Origin: a virus
Lineage: Duplodnaviria; Heunggongvirae; Uroviricota; Caudoviricetes
Reading direction: 5' to 3' (one strand)
Virus record (IMG/VR): IMGVR_UViG_2703718788_000013
DNA length: 44,513 nt
In this document: positions 2,321-40,640 of the stretch, in pieces
Position numbering within the stretch: position 1 is the first letter of the stretch
How the letters are laid out: the number at the start of each line of letters is the position of its first letter
Program-made: the position numbers and the translations under genes
The notes under the pieces: generated by a model
What the model saw: only the letters and a program-made list of their open reading frames with translations
What the model was told of the DNA's origin: nothing
Databases searched by the model: none

Positions 2321-4792
2321 TTAAAAATCAGCCTGACTCGGGATCAGTTTTTGCCAGATAGCTGAAACGTATTTTGCTTGGTAACGAGCGTCATCAAGTG
2401 CATTATGGCGCTCACCTTCGAATGGGATAGCAGTTCTGGCATCGAAGTCTATGGCTTTCCCCAGCTCAACGATTGTGCGTATATCGCGATCGTTGTAGTA
2501 ACGCCACGGGCAGGGGATCCCCTGCCGTTCGTATGAACGGCGCAAAATCGTGTTGTCGAAGTTTGCTCCATTTCCCCAGACCTGAACAAAAAATTCACCG
2601 GAGTTTTCGTCGATAAATTCCCGCAATTGTAACAGTGCATCATCTAACGGGATTTCATCGGTCATAATGGCAGATTGCGCTTCGCGTGATTGCTTAAGCC
2701 ACCATTTAATGGTGTCCCGATCAATGACTCCGCCAGCAGTTTCCAGATCGACAGTCTTACTAAATTCCGGTCCCATATCTCCGGTTTGCGGATCGAAAAA
2801 TATTGCACCTATTGAGATAATCGGGGCATCAGGATTTTTTCCCATGGTTTCAAGGTCGATCATCAGATGAATCCCCGCTCTGCTGGTGGATGTGAGATTA
2901 TGATGACCGTTCATCTTAATTAAGGGATCTGACGCCTCGCCAGTTTCACTATCGCTGGCATGATGCTGATTGCCGCCAGTGTTCTCCTTGTGCTGATGCG
3001 CAGTGCCTTCCATTTCCTCCGGAACATTTTCCTGAACTTCAGGCTGATTCTCTTCATCGAATATTTCCTGGTATGTTGCGTCGCCCATCACCGCACCACA
3101 ATCAGGGCAGCTACCGCCGCCGGTCTGACCGCAGGCGGTGCAGGCTTTTTCCGGCTCCTGTTGCGCTACTGGTTCAACCTGTTTCGTTTCTGGCTCGTTT
3201 TGTTGCGCATTTGGGCTGTTTTGTTCCGTTTTTTGGTCGTTCTGTTCCGATTCTTGCTGGTTCTGGTTTACAGAGTCGCGGGTTTCAATCCCCTTCACCC
3301 ATTTCGGATCATTCGGGTCGCTAATCCCTGCAACAAATTCTCCGCGAGAGGCAGCAAGCAACTTATCGGCGTCAGGCTGGCTGATATTGGCTGCCTGCAT
3401 AATTTTGTTTACTTCTTCAGCGGTAACTTTTACCGGCTCTGGTTGTGCGGTCGTGTCAGATGCACCAGTATTTTGTTGTGAACCTGAGTATGTACTGTTT
3501 TTGCGGGCAAAATATTCTTCTTTCGTGATTTCAGTAGCCCCTGCAGTCAGCGCCTTATTCAGACCAGAAAGTTTGTTTGCGCGACCATATTTTTCGCCAT
3601 CCTTATCTGTGAAGAGGAAGTAGAACGGCCCTTCACGCTCTACAGATGGTTCGACTTCCACTTTGCATTCGGTTTTTTCGTTGTCCGGAATTGCCGTTTC
3701 CACTGCATCAGTTTCTGGTACTGGCGACGAGAGAGTATCAGTTGCGCTCTGATTTGTTCCTTCATCTTCAAACACGCCCTTTGTAGTCAGATATTCAGTA
3801 ATGTATTTGTTCAGTGCCACAGGGGTTTTGTGAATGTCGATCGGACGTTCACGGACAAGGCCAAAAATAGTCTGGCGGTCGTAGCGAAGGGCATCAGGCT
3901 GTTTGCGCATTGATGCCGAGATACGCTTCCAGTCTTCGCGGTCGTTGTCGATAACTTCATTTTTTGCCCAGCGATGGATGCTGCCGTCAATGTTTCCGGC
4001 ATCAATGTCACCAGGCCACAGAGCGTAGGCCAGTTCATCATCCAGTGTTTTCCATGTCTGCTTGTATTCGCGACGAATGGTGGCAGTGGCTGGGGGGATT
4101 TTCGCTACTGAGTTTTCAGTGTTCTGCCGGTTGACTCTGGCGCGGGCAAGATCAACAACAGACGTGTATTTCCCGGTTTCTTTGCGTTCGGCTTCGCGAC
4201 GTTTTTTCCAGGTGCGTAATTCTGTCTGGATCTCAGGCCATTTTGCTCCCGGCTTACATTTATGTTTAACCCACCCGATGGCGAGCAGCTTGAGCTCTGA
4301 ATACATGACGTTAACTTCAGGCATTTTCATCAATGCCTCAACGATATGCCCGTCGAATGTTGCCATGTCCTCCTGCAGTAATTCCTGAGCACTAATCACC
4401 ATATCAACGGTGATGTTTTCACATGTACCGAACTTAACCAGGACCGCGTTCTGTACTTCAAGGGACAGCTTGTTAAAATTGACGTTCATCGGATCGGATT
4501 CTGGTTCGACCGGAATAAAGGAAGCGGATTCCTCATCCCAGCGGTTTTCCTGCATATATTCGGTATCCCAGGAGTCGATAGCAGGGCGGGGCATGCCGGG
4601 TTTATCCTCGCAGACAAGAAATTTATAAGCGCAGTCCTGAGCAGCCGGATATTGCTCCAGGAATTGCCAGGTAAATTTGGCACGGGCGCGGCGTTCGTCA
4701 CCGGCTTCAATGGCAGTGGCTACAGCAATTGCACCTTCTTCCTTTATTGCCTGTTCGTCCGGAATGGCGGCGCAAATAAAGACTTTACTCAT
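2321..4792 (-). CDS. Large exonuclease-family protein with C-terminal DnaQ-like DEDDh 3'-5' exonuclease domain (RecE position)
   Basis: 823-aa ORF, GAGG ribosome-binding site 10 nt upstream; C-terminal motifs IDLETMG (Exo I), WGNGANFD (Exo II), HNALDDA (Exo III); central acidic/Q-rich linker with CxxC...CxxC (CTACGQTGGGSCPDCG). Confidence 0.8.
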   Translation of the reverse strand: MSKVFICAAIPDEQAIKEEGAIAVATAIEAGDERRARAKFTWQFLEQYPAAQDCAYKFLVCEDKPGMPRPAIDSWDTEYMQENRWDEESASFIPVEPESDPMNVNFNKLSLEVQNAVLVKFGTCENITVDMVISAQELLQEDMATFDGHIVEALMKMPEVNVMYSELKLLAIGWVKHKCKPGAKWPEIQTELRTWKKRREAERKETGKYTSVVDLARARVNRQNTENSVAKIPPATATIRREYKQTWKTLDDELAYALWPGDIDAGNIDGSIHRWAKNEVIDNDREDWKRISASMRKQPDALRYDRQTIFGLVRERPIDIHKTPVALNKYITEYLTTKGVFEDEGTNQSATDTLSSPVPETDAVETAIPDNEKTECKVEVEPSVEREGPFYFLFTDKDGEKYGRANKLSGLNKALTAGATEITKEEYFARKNSTYSGSQQNTGASDTTAQPEPVKVTAEEVNKIMQAANISQPDADKLLAASRGEFVAGISDPNDPKWVKGIETRDSVNQNQQESEQNDQKTEQNSPNAQQNEPETKQVEPVAQQEPEKACTACGQTGGGSCPDCGAVMGDATYQEIFDEENQPEVQENVPEEMEGTAHQHKENTGGNQHHASDSETGEASDPLIKMNGHHNLTSTSRAGIHLMIDLETMGKNPDAPIISIGAIFFDPQTGDMGPEFSKTVDLETAGGVIDRDTIKWWLKQSREAQSAIMTDEIPLDDALLQLREFIDENSGEFFVQVWGNGANFDNTILRRSYERQGIPCPWRYYNDRDIRTIVELGKAIDFDARTAIPFEGERHNALDDARYQAKYVSAIWQKLIPSQADF

Positions 4793-4915: not shown

Positions 4916-5137
4916 TCACCATGACTCTGCTTTTACAGGTAAACCATCACGACCAAGGAAGACTTTTATCATGGTTTCCTTAATACAGTGTTGTGTGGAA
5001 AAATCACGAATATAGAGCCGTTGTTTTTTAATGTTGTTTACCGAAGCAATATATGTTCTTCCTTTATGAATAACATAATCACCGGGAGTCACGCACTGAC
5101 GAGGAATCTCATCAGTTCCGAAGTGATGAGCAATCAT
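4916..5137 (-). CDS. KilR-like small protein (putative cell-division inhibitor), 73 aa
   Basis: ORF-track 4916..5149; GGAG ribosome-binding site favours internal ATG at 5137 ([12 protein letters not shown]...); size and position next to exonuclease gene match Rac kilR; identity recalled from memory only. Confidence 0.5.
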
Positions 5138-5311
5138 AATTATCTCCATTTTTACAAATGAACTTTGTTGATGCGGTGCCTGGTGCCTCCAGGTGACGTT
5201 AACCAGTTAACAATTAACGCCGGATACAGAGAATCCACCCATAACACTGTTTTTGGTTTTAACTGTTCCGCGTGCGCTTAGCCGCATTCACCGCATCACA
5301 AAATTCACTTT

Positions 5312-5369
5312 AAAAAGGGCGGCAGAGCAGTCACGGAGTAAAACTGATACCGCCAAACGCCACCAGAAA
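5312..5369 (-). ncRNA. dicF: DicF-like small RNA (ftsZ translation inhibitor family) with intrinsic terminator
   Basis: Minus-strand sequence TTTTCTGGTGGCGTTTGGCGGTATCAGTTTTACTCCGTGACTGCTCTGCCGCCCTTTTT matches the remembered E. coli DicF sequence with one mismatch; GGCGG...CCGCC stem then U-run; no ORF in the region. Confidence 0.7.
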
Positions 5370-5705
5370 ATTGATAACAGAGGGCGTTGTAGCGGGGTTG
5401 TCACTTAAGCGTATGGTCAACCTGACAACCCGGTGTCCTCAACGGGGAAGGAATAACCCCGCCATACTTACCGCCGCGCCATTTCGCGGAGTGCCACAAC
5501 CGGAAGCGCACGGTCGAATTAAATTTAACGACACCGTACAGAGAGACCAATTTCGCCGTGCGCTTTCGCGTTATGCCTTGGCTTTTCAGGGATATATCCT
5601 TTCAGTAAACTGTCAGTACCGGATTCTTATCCGTGTCCGGCGCACGACCACACGTGACAGCGTGTTGGTCTCCATTTTTAACCCAGAACCTCAATGGAGG
5701 ATAAA

Positions 5706-5915
5706 ATGCCAAACAAAAAAAGAAATCCGCTTATTGAAAAACAGATTGAATGCCTGGTAAATCAACTCAGGCAATCAGGGTTATTAAAAACTCATTCAGA
5801 GTTGAGGCTCACAGAATCAGCATTCGACGATAAATTAAATAATGTCCTTTATAATGGCATTATTGATTTTAATCGTTCTGTTGGTCGCCGCGGCCCTGCT
5901 GGTGTTTCCTTATAA
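5706..5915 (+). CDS. Hypothetical 69-aa protein, encoded antisense to the early-left operon
   Basis: ATG at 5706 preceded by GGAGG 5 nt upstream; ORF-track 5694..5915. Confidence 0.45.
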   Translation: MPNKKRNPLIEKQIECLVNQLRQSGLLKTHSELRLTESAFDDKLNNVLYNGIIDFNRSVGRRGPAGVSL

Positions 5916-6554
5916 TTACCAGTCAATCCAGAGCGGACCGTGTTCAGCGTAAATATAACTGTACACATCCAGATTATATTTGTGGTCTGTTAAGAACAGG
6001 CCGCAAATACATGCCGAAGCTTCCAGGGCAGCGGCTCTGTTACTGAATAACCATGTAGCAACATTCCAGCGTTTTTCTGCATCCCAGTCTTTCTCAAGGC
6101 CTGATACCATGAAGAAACCGTTAGTGTTGCCATCAAATAATTCTGTTTCCAGATTTTTAAGCAATGCCTGATGGACTCTTGCCAGGTATTCCGCCGGAAT
6201 TTCGCCACGAATTCTGATGAGATTGTCATAAACAAACATGTTCCCCGCATATGGCGATTTTTCTTTCTTGTTTTTTAAACCAGCATCATGAGCAAACTGA
6301 TCAATTTCTTCTTCCGTTGGTTTCGTATTGATGTTTTGCGCTGTCGTTTCTGCAATTTTATTTGCCACACTCTCTGAGTCGTGTTTATTTACAGACGCAC
6401 AGAAATACAATCCGGTAAACGCATCGCGCACATTACGAGCCATATTATCAGTGTCTTTTTTCGTTACCGATTCCAATGCAAGTTCGTTCAGACGATGACG
6501 AAGTGTGTGTGCTGCAATCTCCTGGATTGAAGTAGGTAAATCTTTAAATTCCAT
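5916..6554 (-). CDS. Hypothetical early-left protein, 212 aa
   Basis: ORF-track 5916..6566; ATG at 6554 (MEFKDLPTSIQ) has GAGG 7 nt upstream and follows the stop of the upstream ORF. Confidence 0.6.
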   Translation of the reverse strand: MEFKDLPTSIQEIAAHTLRHRLNELALESVTKKDTDNMARNVRDAFTGLYFCASVNKHDSESVANKIAETTAQNINTKPTEEEIDQFAHDAGLKNKKEKSPYAGNMFVYDNLIRIRGEIPAEYLARVHQALLKNLETELFDGNTNGFFMVSGLEKDWDAEKRWNVATWLFSNRAAALEASACICGLFLTDHKYNLDVYSYIYAEHGPLWIDW

Positions 6555-6565
6555 CGTCAACCTCA

Positions 6566-6796
6566 TCAGTCAGAGTTTCTTGCTAACCAGCGATGCGCGC
6601 CAGCTTCGGTTTTAAACGTTTTACTTTTGGTATACGTCATCGCGGTGAACGTGCCGTCCTGGTTGGGAAACACGCCGTACACCAGAGATTCGTTGTTGCC
6701 AAGATCGATAGTATCCATGCTGACCTCATTTCCCCTTAACGCCGGGGTAGCGGAACAAAAACCTGCTGCATAGTTAAAGTTGAACCCTGCCGTCAT
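6566..6796 (-). CDS. Hypothetical early-left protein, 76 aa (first gene after putative pL)
   Basis: ORF-track 6566..6796 minus; tightly coupled to downstream ORF. Confidence 0.5.
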   Translation of the reverse strand: MTAGFNFNYAAGFCSATPALRGNEVSMDTIDLGNNESLVYGVFPNQDGTFTAMTYTKSKTFKTEAGAHRWLARNSD

Positions 6797-6899
6797 GTTC
6801 TTACGCCTCGGGCTGGCTACTTAACCCCTGACCACTGCCTGGTAACTCGAAGTATTGCCCTGCGTGCTGTGGGGCGGGGTGGGTTGGTATGTTGTCAAG

Positions 6900-6913
6900 G
6901 TAACAAGAGTTAC
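6900..6913. promoter_or_regulatory. OL-like operator, GTAAC-N4-GTTAC palindrome
   Basis: GTAACAAGAGTTAC between repressor gene end and first early-left ORF; same motif as the two sites in the cI-cro intergenic region. Confidence 0.5.
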
Positions 6914-6955
6914 CGGAAAAGTCAATGAGATGTTGCAAAAGGTACATACAGGAGC

Positions 6956-6981
6956 GCAAAAAACCCGCAATGAATGCGGGT
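6956..6981 (-). terminator. Intrinsic terminator downstream of repressor gene
   Basis: Minus-strand AACCCGCA / TGCGGGTT 8-bp stem followed by TTTTTT, just after repressor stop. Confidence 0.6.
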
Positions 6982-6987
6982 TCTGAC

Positions 6988-7662
6988 TCAGTCTAAATAT
7001 TGATGTATTTGTGAAACTTTACCTTTAATAGTGTAACCACCATTCAGTTCAATGGGTTTGTAAAGCGGATTCAGTGACAGCAGATAGATGTTTGGTCCGT
7101 CAATCGCAACTTTTTTTAGTGTTACGTTCGGCGTTCCTTCCAATTGGATTAAGATTATTTTTCCCACCAGTTCTCTAATGTTACTTGAGCATGGCGTGAT
7201 CAGCACGGTAGATCCGTCGGGGATGGTTGGGAGGCCGTTAGAGTTCGTCATCGCATCTCCCTCAACGCGCAATAAAAAAGAGTTTTCAGCGGTTTTTGTC
7301 ATGACATCAACCCAATTCTTAATACCAGGAATCTCGGTTACTGGGCAACTCATATCCCAATAACCAGCCTGTTCCCACGTTAAAACGGGCAACCGGGCGA
7401 TGTTGTCACTAATGTAAAGGTACTGATTCAGACGCAGATCGTCGGTTTTATCGTGACCATCCTTTCCATAAAGAATCCATTCAGGAGATTTGGAAAGCAA
7501 TTTTGACAGCAGATGCAAATTCTCACCGTCAGGTTTTGAAGAGCCATTTTCCCATTTTGTTACGGATACGCGAGATATGCCGATTGCTTTCGCAACCTGC
7601 TGTTGAGTTAGTCCAACGTCTTTTCGACGATTCCGAATACGTTCGCTGATAGTGTTTTTCAT
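6988..7662 (-). CDS. cI: CI-like repressor (HTH_XRE N-terminal domain plus S24 LexA-like C-terminal domain)
   Basis: ORF-track 6988..7761; C-terminal region aligns by eye with lambda CI (VEGDAMT versus VEGNSMT, TLKKV versus TFKKL, QAG linker); start placed at ATG 7662 to leave a 91-bp operator region before cro (ATG 7704 is an alternative). Confidence 0.8.
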   Translation of the reverse strand: MKNTISERIRNRRKDVGLTQQQVAKAIGISRVSVTKWENGSSKPDGENLHLLSKLLSKSPEWILYGKDGHDKTDDLRLNQYLYISDNIARLPVLTWEQAGYWDMSCPVTEIPGIKNWVDVMTKTAENSFLLRVEGDAMTNSNGLPTIPDGSTVLITPCSSNIRELVGKIILIQLEGTPNVTLKKVAIDGPNIYLLSLNPLYKPIELNGGYTIKGKVSQIHQYLD

Positions 7663-7724
7663 GTAACCAATGTTACCACCAAGTGATGTTACTGTGGTTG
7701 ACATCTTTATGTAACTATTGTTAC
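7663..7724. promoter_or_regulatory. OR-like operator region with GTAAC-N4-GTTAC palindromes between cI and cro
   Basis: GTAACCAATGTTAC at 7663-7676 and GTAACTATTGTTAC at 7711-7724, plus a GTTAC half-site near 7688; divergent cI/cro starts flank it. Confidence 0.55.
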
Positions 7725-7753
7725 CCTTTTGTTCGAAATAACAGGAGAGTTTT

Positions 7754-7969
7754 ATGTTCAAAGATGATGTTCTGCGCTATTTCAAAAAAAAGCGACTAGT
7801 AGCTGAGGCTCTTGGAATTTCACATGTGGCTGTTGTGCGGTGGAAAGCAGTTATTCCCAAACTTCGCGCAATGGAGCTGGATGAAATTACTAACGGTGAA
7901 TTGAAATACAATCCAGAACTTTACAAGAAGCAGGATAGCACCTCGAACGAAGGAAAGAATGATTCATGA
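7754..7969 (+). CDS. cro: Cro-like small HTH regulator
   Basis: 71-aa ORF divergent from cI, AGGAG ribosome-binding site at 7743-7749; HTH-like segment RLVAEALGISHVAVVRWK. Confidence 0.7.
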   Translation: MFKDDVLRYFKKKRLVAEALGISHVAVVRWKAVIPKLRAMELDEITNGELKYNPELYKKQDSTSNEGKNDS

Positions 7970-11775: not shown

Positions 11776-11986
11776 TTTCATATTGGCGAGGTAACGGTAG
11801 TTAAGTAGAATGGCTGTGGGTGCTTGAGGCTATCTGCCTCGGGCATGAACACCAACGGCAGATAGAGAAAAGCCCCAGTTAACATTACGCGTCCTGCAAG
11901 ACGCTTAACATTAATCTGAGGCCAATTTCATGCTAGACACATGTAGGTTAGCCTCTTACGTGCCGAAAGGCAAGGAGAAGCAGGCT

Positions 11987-12142
11987 ATGAAGCAGCAAAA
12001 GGCGATGTTAATCGCCCTGATCGTCATCTGTTTAACCGTCATAGTGACGGCACTGGTAACGAGGAAAGACCTCTGCGAGGTACGAATCCGAACCGACCAG
12101 ACGGAGGTCGCTGTCTTCACAGCTTACGAACCTGAGGAGTAA
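11987..12142 (+). CDS. hok: Hok/Gef-family type I toxin
   Basis: 51-aa product MKQQKAMLIALIVICLTVIVTALVTRKDLCEVRIRTDQTEVAVFTAYEPEE, near-identical to remembered HokD/RelF; AAGGAGAAG ribosome-binding site; 8-bp hairpin at 12151-12170. Confidence 0.85.
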   Translation: MKQQKAMLIALIVICLTVIVTALVTRKDLCEVRIRTDQTEVAVFTAYEPEE

Positions 12143-14907: not shown

Positions 14908-14983
14908 GGCCCTTTAGCTCAGTGGTGAGAGCGAGCGACTCATAATCGCCAGGTCGCTGGTTCAAATCCAGCAAGGGCCACCA
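14908..14983 (+). tRNA. tRNA with CAT anticodon, ileX-like (tRNA-Ile2 or Met)
   Basis: 76-nt cloverleaf, acceptor GGCCCTT/AAGGGCC, anticodon loop CTCATAA, CCA end; resembles remembered E. coli ileX. Confidence 0.8.
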
Positions 14984-14984
14984 A

Positions 14985-15061
14985 CCGCCACTAGCTCATC
15001 AGGAAAGAGCGTCAACCCTTTAAGTTGAGTGTGCGAGGTTCGAGTCCCCGGTGGCGGTCCA
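14985..15061 (+). tRNA. tRNA-like gene, apparent anticodon TTT (Lys-like), non-canonical features
   Basis: Acceptor CCGCCAC/GTGGCGG, anticodon stem TCAAC/GTTGA, loop CCTTTAA (C at position 33), T-loop TTCGAGT, CCA end; A-C mismatch in T-stem. Confidence 0.55.
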
Positions 15062-15063
15062 GT

Positions 15064-15139
<76 letters not shown>

Positions 15140-15142
15140 TAT

Positions 15143-15217
<75 letters not shown>

Positions 15218-39999: not shown

Positions 40000-40590
40000 A
40001 TGCCATTGATAACATCCAGCCTTTCATCAAATGTTGCTTTGCAGAGTATTGAAATATTACGTGAAGCTGCCAGACAAAACCTGATTACGAAAGCTATTAC
40101 TATAAATGGGCAGAAAGTTGGTATTCATTATTATCACCGCCCTGACGTTTTTCTAGTTTCTGGTTGTAAGGATGGGATGTTAAAAACATTATTAGAGTTA
40201 GGGTTAAATGGTAGCAATGAGTCAGCCAAAAGGCTTCGTTCATGGCAAATTTCCTCTGTAATTGATACTCATCTGAGTTTTTTACCATTAGGTATATGCT
40301 ATAAAATACTTTCAAGTTCTTTTCCTGTACATTCGGAAGAGGTTTTTTTTCCAGAAGAACATCTCAAGTGTCCAATAATATTAGATGCTCCAGATAATGG
40401 TGTTTTTATAAAGAACTCTGTAAGTGCAAAAGTTTGTAACCTATATGATAAAAATGCAATGTTAAAGTTAGTTATATCTGGTTCTCCACATCCATTAAGT
40501 AGAGAGCCAATAACAGAATCAATGATTATGAGAAAAGATGAATGTTATTTTGATCCCAAAACAGAGTCTTTTGTTGTAAATGATGTTTAA
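40000..40590 (+). CDS. nleG: NleG-like type III effector (U-box E3 ubiquitin ligase family)
   Basis: 196 aa in AT-rich DNA; C-terminal region HLKCPIILDAPDNGVFIKNSVSAKVCNLYD...SPHPLSREPIT resembles NleG U-box domain as remembered. Confidence 0.6.
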   Translation: MPLITSSLSSNVALQSIEILREAARQNLITKAITINGQKVGIHYYHRPDVFLVSGCKDGMLKTLLELGLNGSNESAKRLRSWQISSVIDTHLSFLPLGICYKILSSSFPVHSEEVFFPEEHLKCPIILDAPDNGVFIKNSVSAKVCNLYDKNAMLKLVISGSPHPLSREPITESMIMRKDECYFDPKTESFVVNDV

Positions 40591-40640
40591 TTTTTTTATT
40601 GGTGTTACTTTTAGTGGACTAAGTTGAAGGAGTGCGATAA

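Follow-up and report, generated by a model that had tools for sequence, protein, structure and literature searches.

The closest described relative of the locus considered here is the dicBF operon of the Qin prophage of Escherichia coli K-12 (dicBp - ydfA - ydfB - ydfC - dicF - dicB - ydfD). In K-12, ydfABC, dicF and dicB are carried on a single transcript from dicBp and the products of the first three genes are small proteins with no known function (PMC10448788, PMC5069750). DicF is processed out of the polycistronic dicBF RNA (PMC10448788). An operon of like type and gene order is present in the window, by which is meant the whole stretch of DNA that was analysed (44,513 nucleotides (nt); Caudoviricetes, IMG/VR virus record IMGVR_UViG_2703718788_000013). 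Two open reading frames (ORFs) between positions 5916 and 6796, ORF1 and ORF2, had been described in an earlier note, made from the sequence alone, as unassigned genes directly downstream of a putative leftward promoter, pL. Here we report that ORF1 is a ydfA homologue and that ORF2, encoding a protein that we call A, lies with a convergent gene on the opposite strand, B, in a polymorphic locus of alternative cassettes within the dicBF operon. Our searches, as far as they reach, found no earlier description of this locus.

The window is homologous to K-12 Qin over 5157-5646, which comprises the DicF gene and its upstream untranslated region (92% identical), and again over 6573-6756, which contains ydfA. 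The intervening 5647-6572 stands in place of Qin ydfB-ydfC, which the window lacks, and holds the A and B cassette. ORF1 and ORF2 belong to a dicBF-type operon because the DicF gene lies downstream of them on the same strand, and they occupy that end of a Qin/Rac-type dicBF early-left operon which is nearest to the promoter. In this operon a repressor-controlled pL is followed by a conserved leader of ~175 nt, the YdfA/DUF1391 gene and A (ORF2) and, further on, by DicF, the remnant of dicB, kil and a gene for an exonuclease. The window also differs from Qin in its repressor, which is a LexA-like S24 CI and not DicA. Its left arm is a Qin/Rac hybrid in which an intact DicF gene is followed by a remnant of dicB (RefSeq partial pseudogene, 5165-5248) and then by a Rac-type kil.

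The second system to be compared is the racR - ydaG - ydaF / sieB region of the Rac prophage. As in the window, a DUF1391 gene (YdaF) is accompanied by a homologous leader and, downstream, by a kil gene (kilR). There is no A-type gene in Rac and the order is ydaG, then ydaF. The sieB gene of Rac lies on the opposite strand, is convergent with ydaF and overlaps it by 4 nt; gene B of the window is likewise convergent with the pL-proximal genes, although B (69 amino acids (aa), soluble-looking) is unrelated to SieB (162 aa). In P22 and lambda, Esc, which the phage itself makes as an in-frame product of sieB, counters sieB together with an antisense RNA. Ranade and Poteete are said to have described the P22/lambda sieB exclusion gene, the esc escape factor and the sas antisense control in 1993. 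This system serves here as a working analogy only, namely that of a lysogen-expressed factor in the pL region that would be neutralised by the phage's own early expression, with antisense transcription. There is no sequence similarity to sieB, esc or sas, Esc lies within sieB and is not a separate convergent gene, and polymorphic cassettes are not described there.

The evidence that A and B belong together comes from their distribution. The stop codon of B abuts that of ORF2, to which B is convergent, and B has a ratio of non-synonymous to synonymous substitution (dN/dS) of 0.19-0.30. In all 84 loci picked for carrying B (74 from IMG/VR, 4 from Salmonella found via A and 6 more from Salmonella found via B) an ORF encoding the C-terminal domain of A (C-domain) is adjacent and convergent. 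Taken in the reverse direction, B is found downstream in 62 of 64 distinct contexts of the window-type C-domain (A0). The Salmonella C-domain genes occupy another setting, directly after cox in prophages with an int-C-cox switch, and each is followed by a gene of 64-69 aa that is convergent with it, overlaps its 3' end, is 44-52% identical to B and has the C-terminal motif GRRGPAGV in common with B. In two of the six Salmonella loci found via B, the C-domain beside B is a stand-alone ORF that had been missed by gene callers. The pairing is kept at 27-40% identity for the C-domain and 44-52% for B. Linkage between the flanks that bound the cassette in E. coli cannot explain these Salmonella cases, and on the strength of these comparisons we regard the C-domain and B as one functional unit, a conserved two-gene cassette. 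The two families have an identical narrow host range, Escherichia and Salmonella, and similar synonymous divergence (dS 0.42-0.52 for the C-domain and 0.27-0.46 for B), with dN/dS of ~0.2. For B no match was found in Pfam, NCBIfam, PADLOC or PDB, and no homologue in a scan of GTDB species representatives.

Two arrangements seen in related loci may be recorded here. In L091 and L092 a stand-alone C-domain ORF of ~120-130 aa (3214-3564, minus strand), 79% identical to the C-domain of the window, is convergent with a B homologue, which on its far side is flanked by an N-module gene that has another C-terminus. In L006 a terminator-like hairpin with a 10-bp stem (6776-6801, minus strand) is found within the coding region of A, ~50 nt beyond the stop codon of the Salmonella B gene. 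Transcription of B could terminate at this hairpin, for which the window showed no counterpart.

The cassette of the window is one of several that occupy the same locus. Clustering of 155 distinct gene contexts of the N-terminal module of A (N-module) gave at least seven cassette types, each combining a distinct A C-terminus with a convergent B gene of its own. The N-module is common to all A genes, and the variable block is bounded by the 5' ends of the two convergent genes. All B genes begin at one conserved Shine-Dalgarno sequence (SD) and ATG, just past the flank shared with the DicF precursor region, and in all types the 3' ends of A and B abut or overlap by 11-130 nt. Across types the B genes encode proteins of 63-99 aa, of which one is Zn-ribbon-like and the rest look helical, and no known family is matched by any of the alternative A C-termini or B proteins. 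Complementary charge of A and B was considered and rejected, being seen in only two cassette types, 0 and 6. The cassette has been joined to many immunity regions, the sequence beyond 6900 being shared by only 4% of loci. It is present in 600 of 5426 complete E. coli genomes (about 11%), including O157:H7 EDL933, with 536 at >=99% identity. Over bases 5600-7000 the window matches the chromosome of E. coli strain 377323_2f (NZ_CP039404.1) with 100% identity, and segments of this 5600-7000 stretch are present in 4384 of the 5426 genomes. An inverted repeat, (A/G)CCGGATTCTTATCCGTGTCCGGC, at ~5618-5641 in the flank between DicF and B is kept in all cassette types and could be a processing site of the DicF-precursor RNA or a regulatory site for B.

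The modular structure of A (Table 1) was examined by profile searches with its parts against 1.8 billion representative proteins. The N-module recurs at the N-terminus of proteins of 85-201 aa with unrelated C-termini, in about 45 representative clusters, and the C-domain (~96-212) recurs in Salmonella proteins of 206-315 aa that have a different N-terminus, sometimes with an HTH_3 domain. No homology was detectable between the E. coli and Salmonella N-termini (hhalign probability 1%), and giant repeat proteins that matched the N-module profile were set aside as compositional. Linker residues 61-95 are almost neutral (dN/dS 0.4-1.3). Full-length homologues of ORF2 are found only in Escherichia and in a few Salmonella. 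An AlphaFold2 (AF2) model of the C-domain, made from a 29-sequence alignment, has the order beta-beta-alpha-beta-beta-alpha-beta (pLDDT 79, pTM 0.74); the full-length model of ORF2 was poor (pLDDT 62) and was not used in the fold search. A Foldseek search of PDB with the C-domain model returned matches of E >= 5e-3 only and no informative fold. A Prp/YsxB-like cysteine protease fold, matched in a Foldseek search of BFVD (TM 0.36-0.46, best E 3.7e-4), was rejected, there being no invariant Cys or His in the C-domain alignment, and the fold matches of this model are treated as those of a generic two-layer alpha/beta sandwich. The structure search that the earlier note had proposed for both proteins was uninformative for the C-domain of ORF2. 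ORF1 gave only a noise-level PDB match.

As regards the genes themselves, both ORFs are present on the minus strand where the earlier note had placed them, and purifying selection supports them as real genes (dN/dS 0.1-0.2 for ydfA and ~0.2 for the ORF2 C-domain). Its length of 212 aa for ORF2 is confirmed by the start MEFKDLP, common to all ORF2 homologues, and by a GAGG SD at 6564-6561, 6 nt ahead of the ATG at 6554. The note had also called the two ORFs translationally coupled. Their spacing is indeed close, with 11 nt from the ORF1 stop (TGA, 6568-6566) to the ORF2 ATG and an ORF2 SD that abuts the ORF1 stop codon and overlaps an alternative ATG at 6566-6564, and it is seen again in over 55 related loci; it does not by itself demonstrate coupling. 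ORF2 falls in PHROG 2151 (unknown function), only PHROGs of unknown function being matched. It has no Pfam or NCBIfam family (E <= 0.1) and no PADLOC match, and in PDB sequence and profile searches nothing matched ORF2, its two domains or B. It shows no similarity to YdfB, YdfC or YdaG and, in Pfam, NCBIfam, PHROGs and PADLOC, none to Ral, Gam, Ocr/Ard, SieB or Kil-type families. No family match ties either ORF to the functions suggested in the note (restriction alleviation, anti-RecBCD activity or a known exclusion protein). The note was right in kind, in that the early leftward operon carries the two as accessory genes and not as housekeeping phage genes, to which no confident homology was found, and unsupported in its specifics.

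An exclusion-type role for ORF2 is possible by a route other than the one proposed in the note, namely via the opposite-strand gene B, which the note had missed. In the reading that we prefer, and which we hold to be a serious possibility somewhat short of probable, the C-domain of A and B would be a cognate interacting pair that is expressed antagonistically. A would be made from pL only once the repressor is lost, and B would be transcribed from the opposite strand, with read-through from pL acting against it. The C-domain of A would physically bind its cognate B. In the slightly favoured direction B, expressed in the lysogen, would be the active (exclusion or toxin-like) factor and A, expressed early, a neutraliser letting the prophage's own lytic growth escape; the reverse, with A as effector and B as immunity, is nearly as likely. 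The outcome would be cassette-type-specific interference between related prophages, which would explain the cassette polymorphism. YdfA would stand apart from the A/B pair as a separate, constant first gene.

The arrangement in Rac, where the lysogen-expressed exclusion gene sieB is convergent to ydaF at the matching position, speaks for this reading. A number of observations weigh on the other side. Within E. coli, A and B could occur together simply through linkage between conserved recombination flanks, and the convergent layout is unlike that of classical toxin-antitoxin or toxin-immunity operons. A and B match no PADLOC defence model, and the B proteins of different cassettes have no common charge pattern or family. 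Consensus scans found no consensus sigma-70 promoter upstream of B in the window or the Salmonella loci, the upstream flanks of B being conserved in alignment without clear promoter hexamers, and lysogenic expression of B is for this reason an assumption. The exceptions are of both kinds, an intact A without B in L173 and L114 and an intact B beside a frameshifted A in L061 and L076, so that no asymmetry of toxin and antidote can be seen. Neither the C-domain nor B was found in 50,697 deposited phage genomes, an absence which may mean that the carriers are mostly non-inducible prophages.

A first alternative is that A and B are unrelated accessory genes which co-travel between conserved recombination flanks, ORF2 being a lone early host-takeover or anti-defence protein, of the anti-restriction or anti-RecBCD kind that the note had in mind, and B an independent moron. 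Conserved flanks on both sides would move the intervening DNA as a block, and loci with one partner missing or broken do exist. The position directly after pL would suit an early anti-defence protein, as would the acidity of all A proteins (pI 4.6-5.5), which many early anti-restriction proteins share. We nevertheless think this explanation unlikely, though not remote. In Salmonella prophages the C-domain/B pair is kept at 30-50% identity with other flanks, another switch type and an N-module that is different or absent, and the lack of similarity to Ral, Gam, Ocr/Ard or other known families also tells against it.

Rather improbable is a role for the ORFs in the operon itself, with YdfA and/or A as regulators (an N-like substitute, or a factor in DicF processing or stability) or with translation shielding the transcript from Rho for the sake of DicF, DicB and Kil. 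Seven unrelated C-termini, each with its own antisense partner, are not what would be expected of the regulator of a conserved operon, and K-12 Qin makes DicF without A or B. A regulatory role would fit with the strong conservation of ydfA and its constant place as first gene after pL, seen in many immunity types, with the lack of an N gene here, with the processing of DicF from a polycistronic RNA (PMC10448788) and with the HTH_3 domain that Salmonella relatives of A can carry; the A protein of the window, however, has no helix-turn-helix in Pfam, and there is neither a nut/boxA-like site nor a structured leader. That the ORFs are decaying remnants of a defective prophage, without current function, seems highly improbable. 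The prophage has a frameshifted integrase and only a remnant of dicB, and deposited phage genomes lack the cassette, yet dN/dS is 0.1-0.3 for ydfA, the C-domain and B, the frames are intact in hundreds of genomes (the 600 E. coli genomes given above) and the structural and lysis genes of the prophage are intact.

To return to the cognate pair that we prefer, its nearest formal parallels are the polymorphic toxin-immunity loci (contact-dependent growth inhibition (CDI) cdiA-CT/cdiI, Rhs and colicin/immunity) and modular type II toxin-antitoxin (TA) pairs. In these, as in A, a constant N-terminal part is combined with alternative C-domains and, as in A/B, each C-domain is tied to its own small adjacent gene and exchange takes place between conserved flanks. 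A/B differ from polymorphic toxin-immunity loci in having no delivery/secretion domain and no recognised toxin/immunity family, in that B is convergent and not co-transcribed, and in lying within a phage early operon; any toxicity is putative. Against classification as a type II TA module, the two genes are convergent and not bicistronic, and there is no match to a toxin or antitoxin superfamily. Matched gene pairs at a polymorphic locus are the signature of a specificity system, be it immunity, exclusion or addiction, and the operon that holds the cassette, dicBF, is among the best studied of cryptic prophages. We would suggest only tentatively that A/B represent an undescribed class of polymorphic convergent effector-neutraliser modules in the early operon of enterobacterial prophages. 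If this were so, each cassette type would comprise a small lysogen-expressed factor and a matching early-expressed domain, acting in type-specific exclusion and escape between competing prophages or in prophage addiction, and at least seven specificities would circulate in E. coli, one of them shared with Salmonella. If A and B interact, they would make up a compact new prophage-prophage or prophage-host conflict system with natural specificity variants for swapping.

The earlier note had found neither ORF assignable, which stands for ORF2, with no match in Pfam, NCBIfam, PADLOC or PDB, but not for ORF1. ORF1 matches Pfam PF07151 (DUF1391) with E = 1.2e-28 (98.9 bits against a cut-off of 27.3), over profile positions 1-48 of 48 and residues 28-75 of the 76-aa form. 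It is 94% identical to K-12 YdfA and 82% to YdaF, both of which align from Met27. It is under purifying selection (dN/dS 0.09-0.21) and is located between the repressor gene, upstream, and DicF, downstream; in many immunity types ydfA is constantly the gene that comes first after pL. By homology and position, ORF1 is an ordinary member of a named family without characterised function and the first gene of a Qin-type dicBF operon. The 76-aa frame of the note exists, but the conserved gene comprises only the 50 C-terminal aa from the ATG at 6718. This is indicated by the K-12 alignment, by the RefSeq start at 6718, by the GAGG ahead of it, by the lack, in about half of sampled DUF1391 loci, of a Met in the 26 codons upstream, and by a third-position bias that is seen in the core (25/8/4 variable sites) and not in the few variable sites of the 26-codon extension. 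The 76-aa form is probably an over-extension whose extra 26 codons belong to the conserved leader.

Several weak leads concerning ORF1 were discarded. A PDB match to the lambda head decoration protein gpD (1td0, E = 0.085) was rejected as noise, and in PADLOC-DB v2 the only match, a weak one to AbiEi (E 0.004, 14.8 bits), was treated likewise. Literature searches turned up no mention of DUF1391 and no functional assignment for YdfA or YdaF, and nothing for accession numbers, 'ybl81' or peptide strings; a yeast directed-evolution preprint that deals with YdfC and YdaG has no bearing on native function. In phage vB_EcoS-689R5 (ON470583, our locus L002) a long YdfA homologue at 2991-3227 is annotated as 'head-DNA stabilization protein D', a label that is probably a mis-annotation from chance gpD similarity. 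Annotation pipelines that call a 76-aa YdfA, or that name YdfA 'head decoration protein D', are probably wrong.

The placing of both ORFs downstream of a putative pL in the earlier note agrees with the terminator after the cI-like gene, the operator palindrome, the -35/-10-like hexamers and the homology of the leader (Table 1). The hexamers of the putative promoter were read by eye and were not reported by a consensus promoter scan. The palindrome belongs to a family, GTAAC-N4-GTTAC, of which there are three copies, one at pL (6899-6914) and two between the cI-like and cro-like genes (7658-7677 and 7706-7725). Homology to Rac and Qin-like leaders starts at ~6894, where pL transcription would begin, and the leader, though non-coding, is 88-95% identical to those of Rac (upstream of ydaG) and of Qin-like phages. 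Its predicted folding shows no excess RNA structure (folding energy z = +1.3), it has no Rfam match, and no put-like or other RNA was found. In accord with the note, reading by eye of the leader and the stretch revealed no arginine-rich N-like antiterminator ORF and no boxA-like GCTCTT. By comparison with lambda, the first pL gene has no arginine-rich motif and the leader no nutL (boxA/boxB) signal; ORF1 and ORF2 are acidic or neutral, unlike the arginine-rich N. The start of the cI-like gene is uncertain and may be the TTG at 7761, the RefSeq ATG at 7704 or a later Met.

Table 1. Features of the early-left region, in window coordinates
Feature	Position	Strand	Details
cI-like repressor gene	6988-7704/7761		HTH_3 and Peptidase_S24 domains
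Intrinsic terminator-like hairpin	6958..6984	-	AACCCGCA-TTCA-TTGCGGGTT and T run, just past the cI-like gene stop; read from sequence
Putative pL (dicBp equivalent)	6897..6925	-	-35 TTGACT 6925-6920, 17-nt spacer, -10 TACCTT 6902-6897
Operator palindrome GGTAACTCTTGTTACC, 16 bp	6914-6899	-	Between the -35-like and -10-like hexamers of putative pL
Conserved untranslated leader	6719..6894	-	~175 nt; includes the 26-codon 'extension' of the 76-aa ORF
ORF1, longest frame, 76 aa	6796..6566	-	ORF list
ORF1 proper, ydfA homologue, 50 aa	6566..6718	-	ATG 6718; GAGG SD 6727-6724
ORF2 (A), 212 aa	6554..5916	-	216 aa if from ATG 6566; ORF list
A N-module, residues 1-58	6381..6554	-	Predicted two-helix hairpin, helices 8-24 and 32-55 (AF2 model); dN/dS 0.3-0.65
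A linker, residues 59-95	6270..6380	-	Variable, acidic segment; alignment indels; low pLDDT
A C-domain, residues 96-212 and stop codon	5916..6269	-	dN/dS ~0.2
Gene B, 69 aa	5706-5915	+	phrog_4274; RefSeq WP_001133037.1; strong SD GGAGG 5696-5700
Flank between DicF and B	5369..5705		Homologous to Qin ydfC-dicF untranslated region up to 5646; 5647-5705 common to alternative cassettes
DicF small RNA gene	5317-5368	-	Rfam RF00039, 76.4 bits against gathering score 48
kil	4916-5137	-	NF008465, E = 2e-41; 81% identical to KilR

In the RefSeq annotation of NZ_CP039404 the stretch belongs to a lambdoid prophage beside tRNA-Ser/mtfA. Its left part comprises the frameshifted integrase gene, a gene for an 823-aa exonuclease, kil, the dicB remnant and ORF1 and ORF2, and is followed by the genes for a LexA-like repressor, cro, a YdaT-like gene, replication genes, Q and lysis genes; the head, tail and lysis genes are intact and type III secretion system (T3SS) effector genes lie at the far end. 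A sub-threshold Rfam match to the small RNA STnc100 (38 bits against a gathering score of 47, E = 3e-6) is found at 5130-5315 on the minus strand, directly downstream of DicF and over the dicB remnant. On the plus strand a promoter-like site, TTAACA-16-GAGAAT (5207-5234), was recorded as a consensus match only; RNA from this site would be antisense to DicF and would read toward gene B. Further into the prophage, a sok antitoxin RNA (115 bits) and hokD at 11818-11992 on the plus strand form a type I toxin-antitoxin within it, and four tRNA genes (Ile, Lys, Thr and Gly in RefSeq) are clustered at 14908-15214 on the plus strand, downstream of the Q antiterminator gene. The T3SS effector genes, at ~40100-44260 and beyond the tail fibre genes, are annotated in NZ_CP039404 as nleC, an NleG-family gene and a HECT-type E3 ligase effector, and the prophage, with its frameshifted integrase, is an effector-carrying lambdoid prophage of attaching-effacing E. 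coli.

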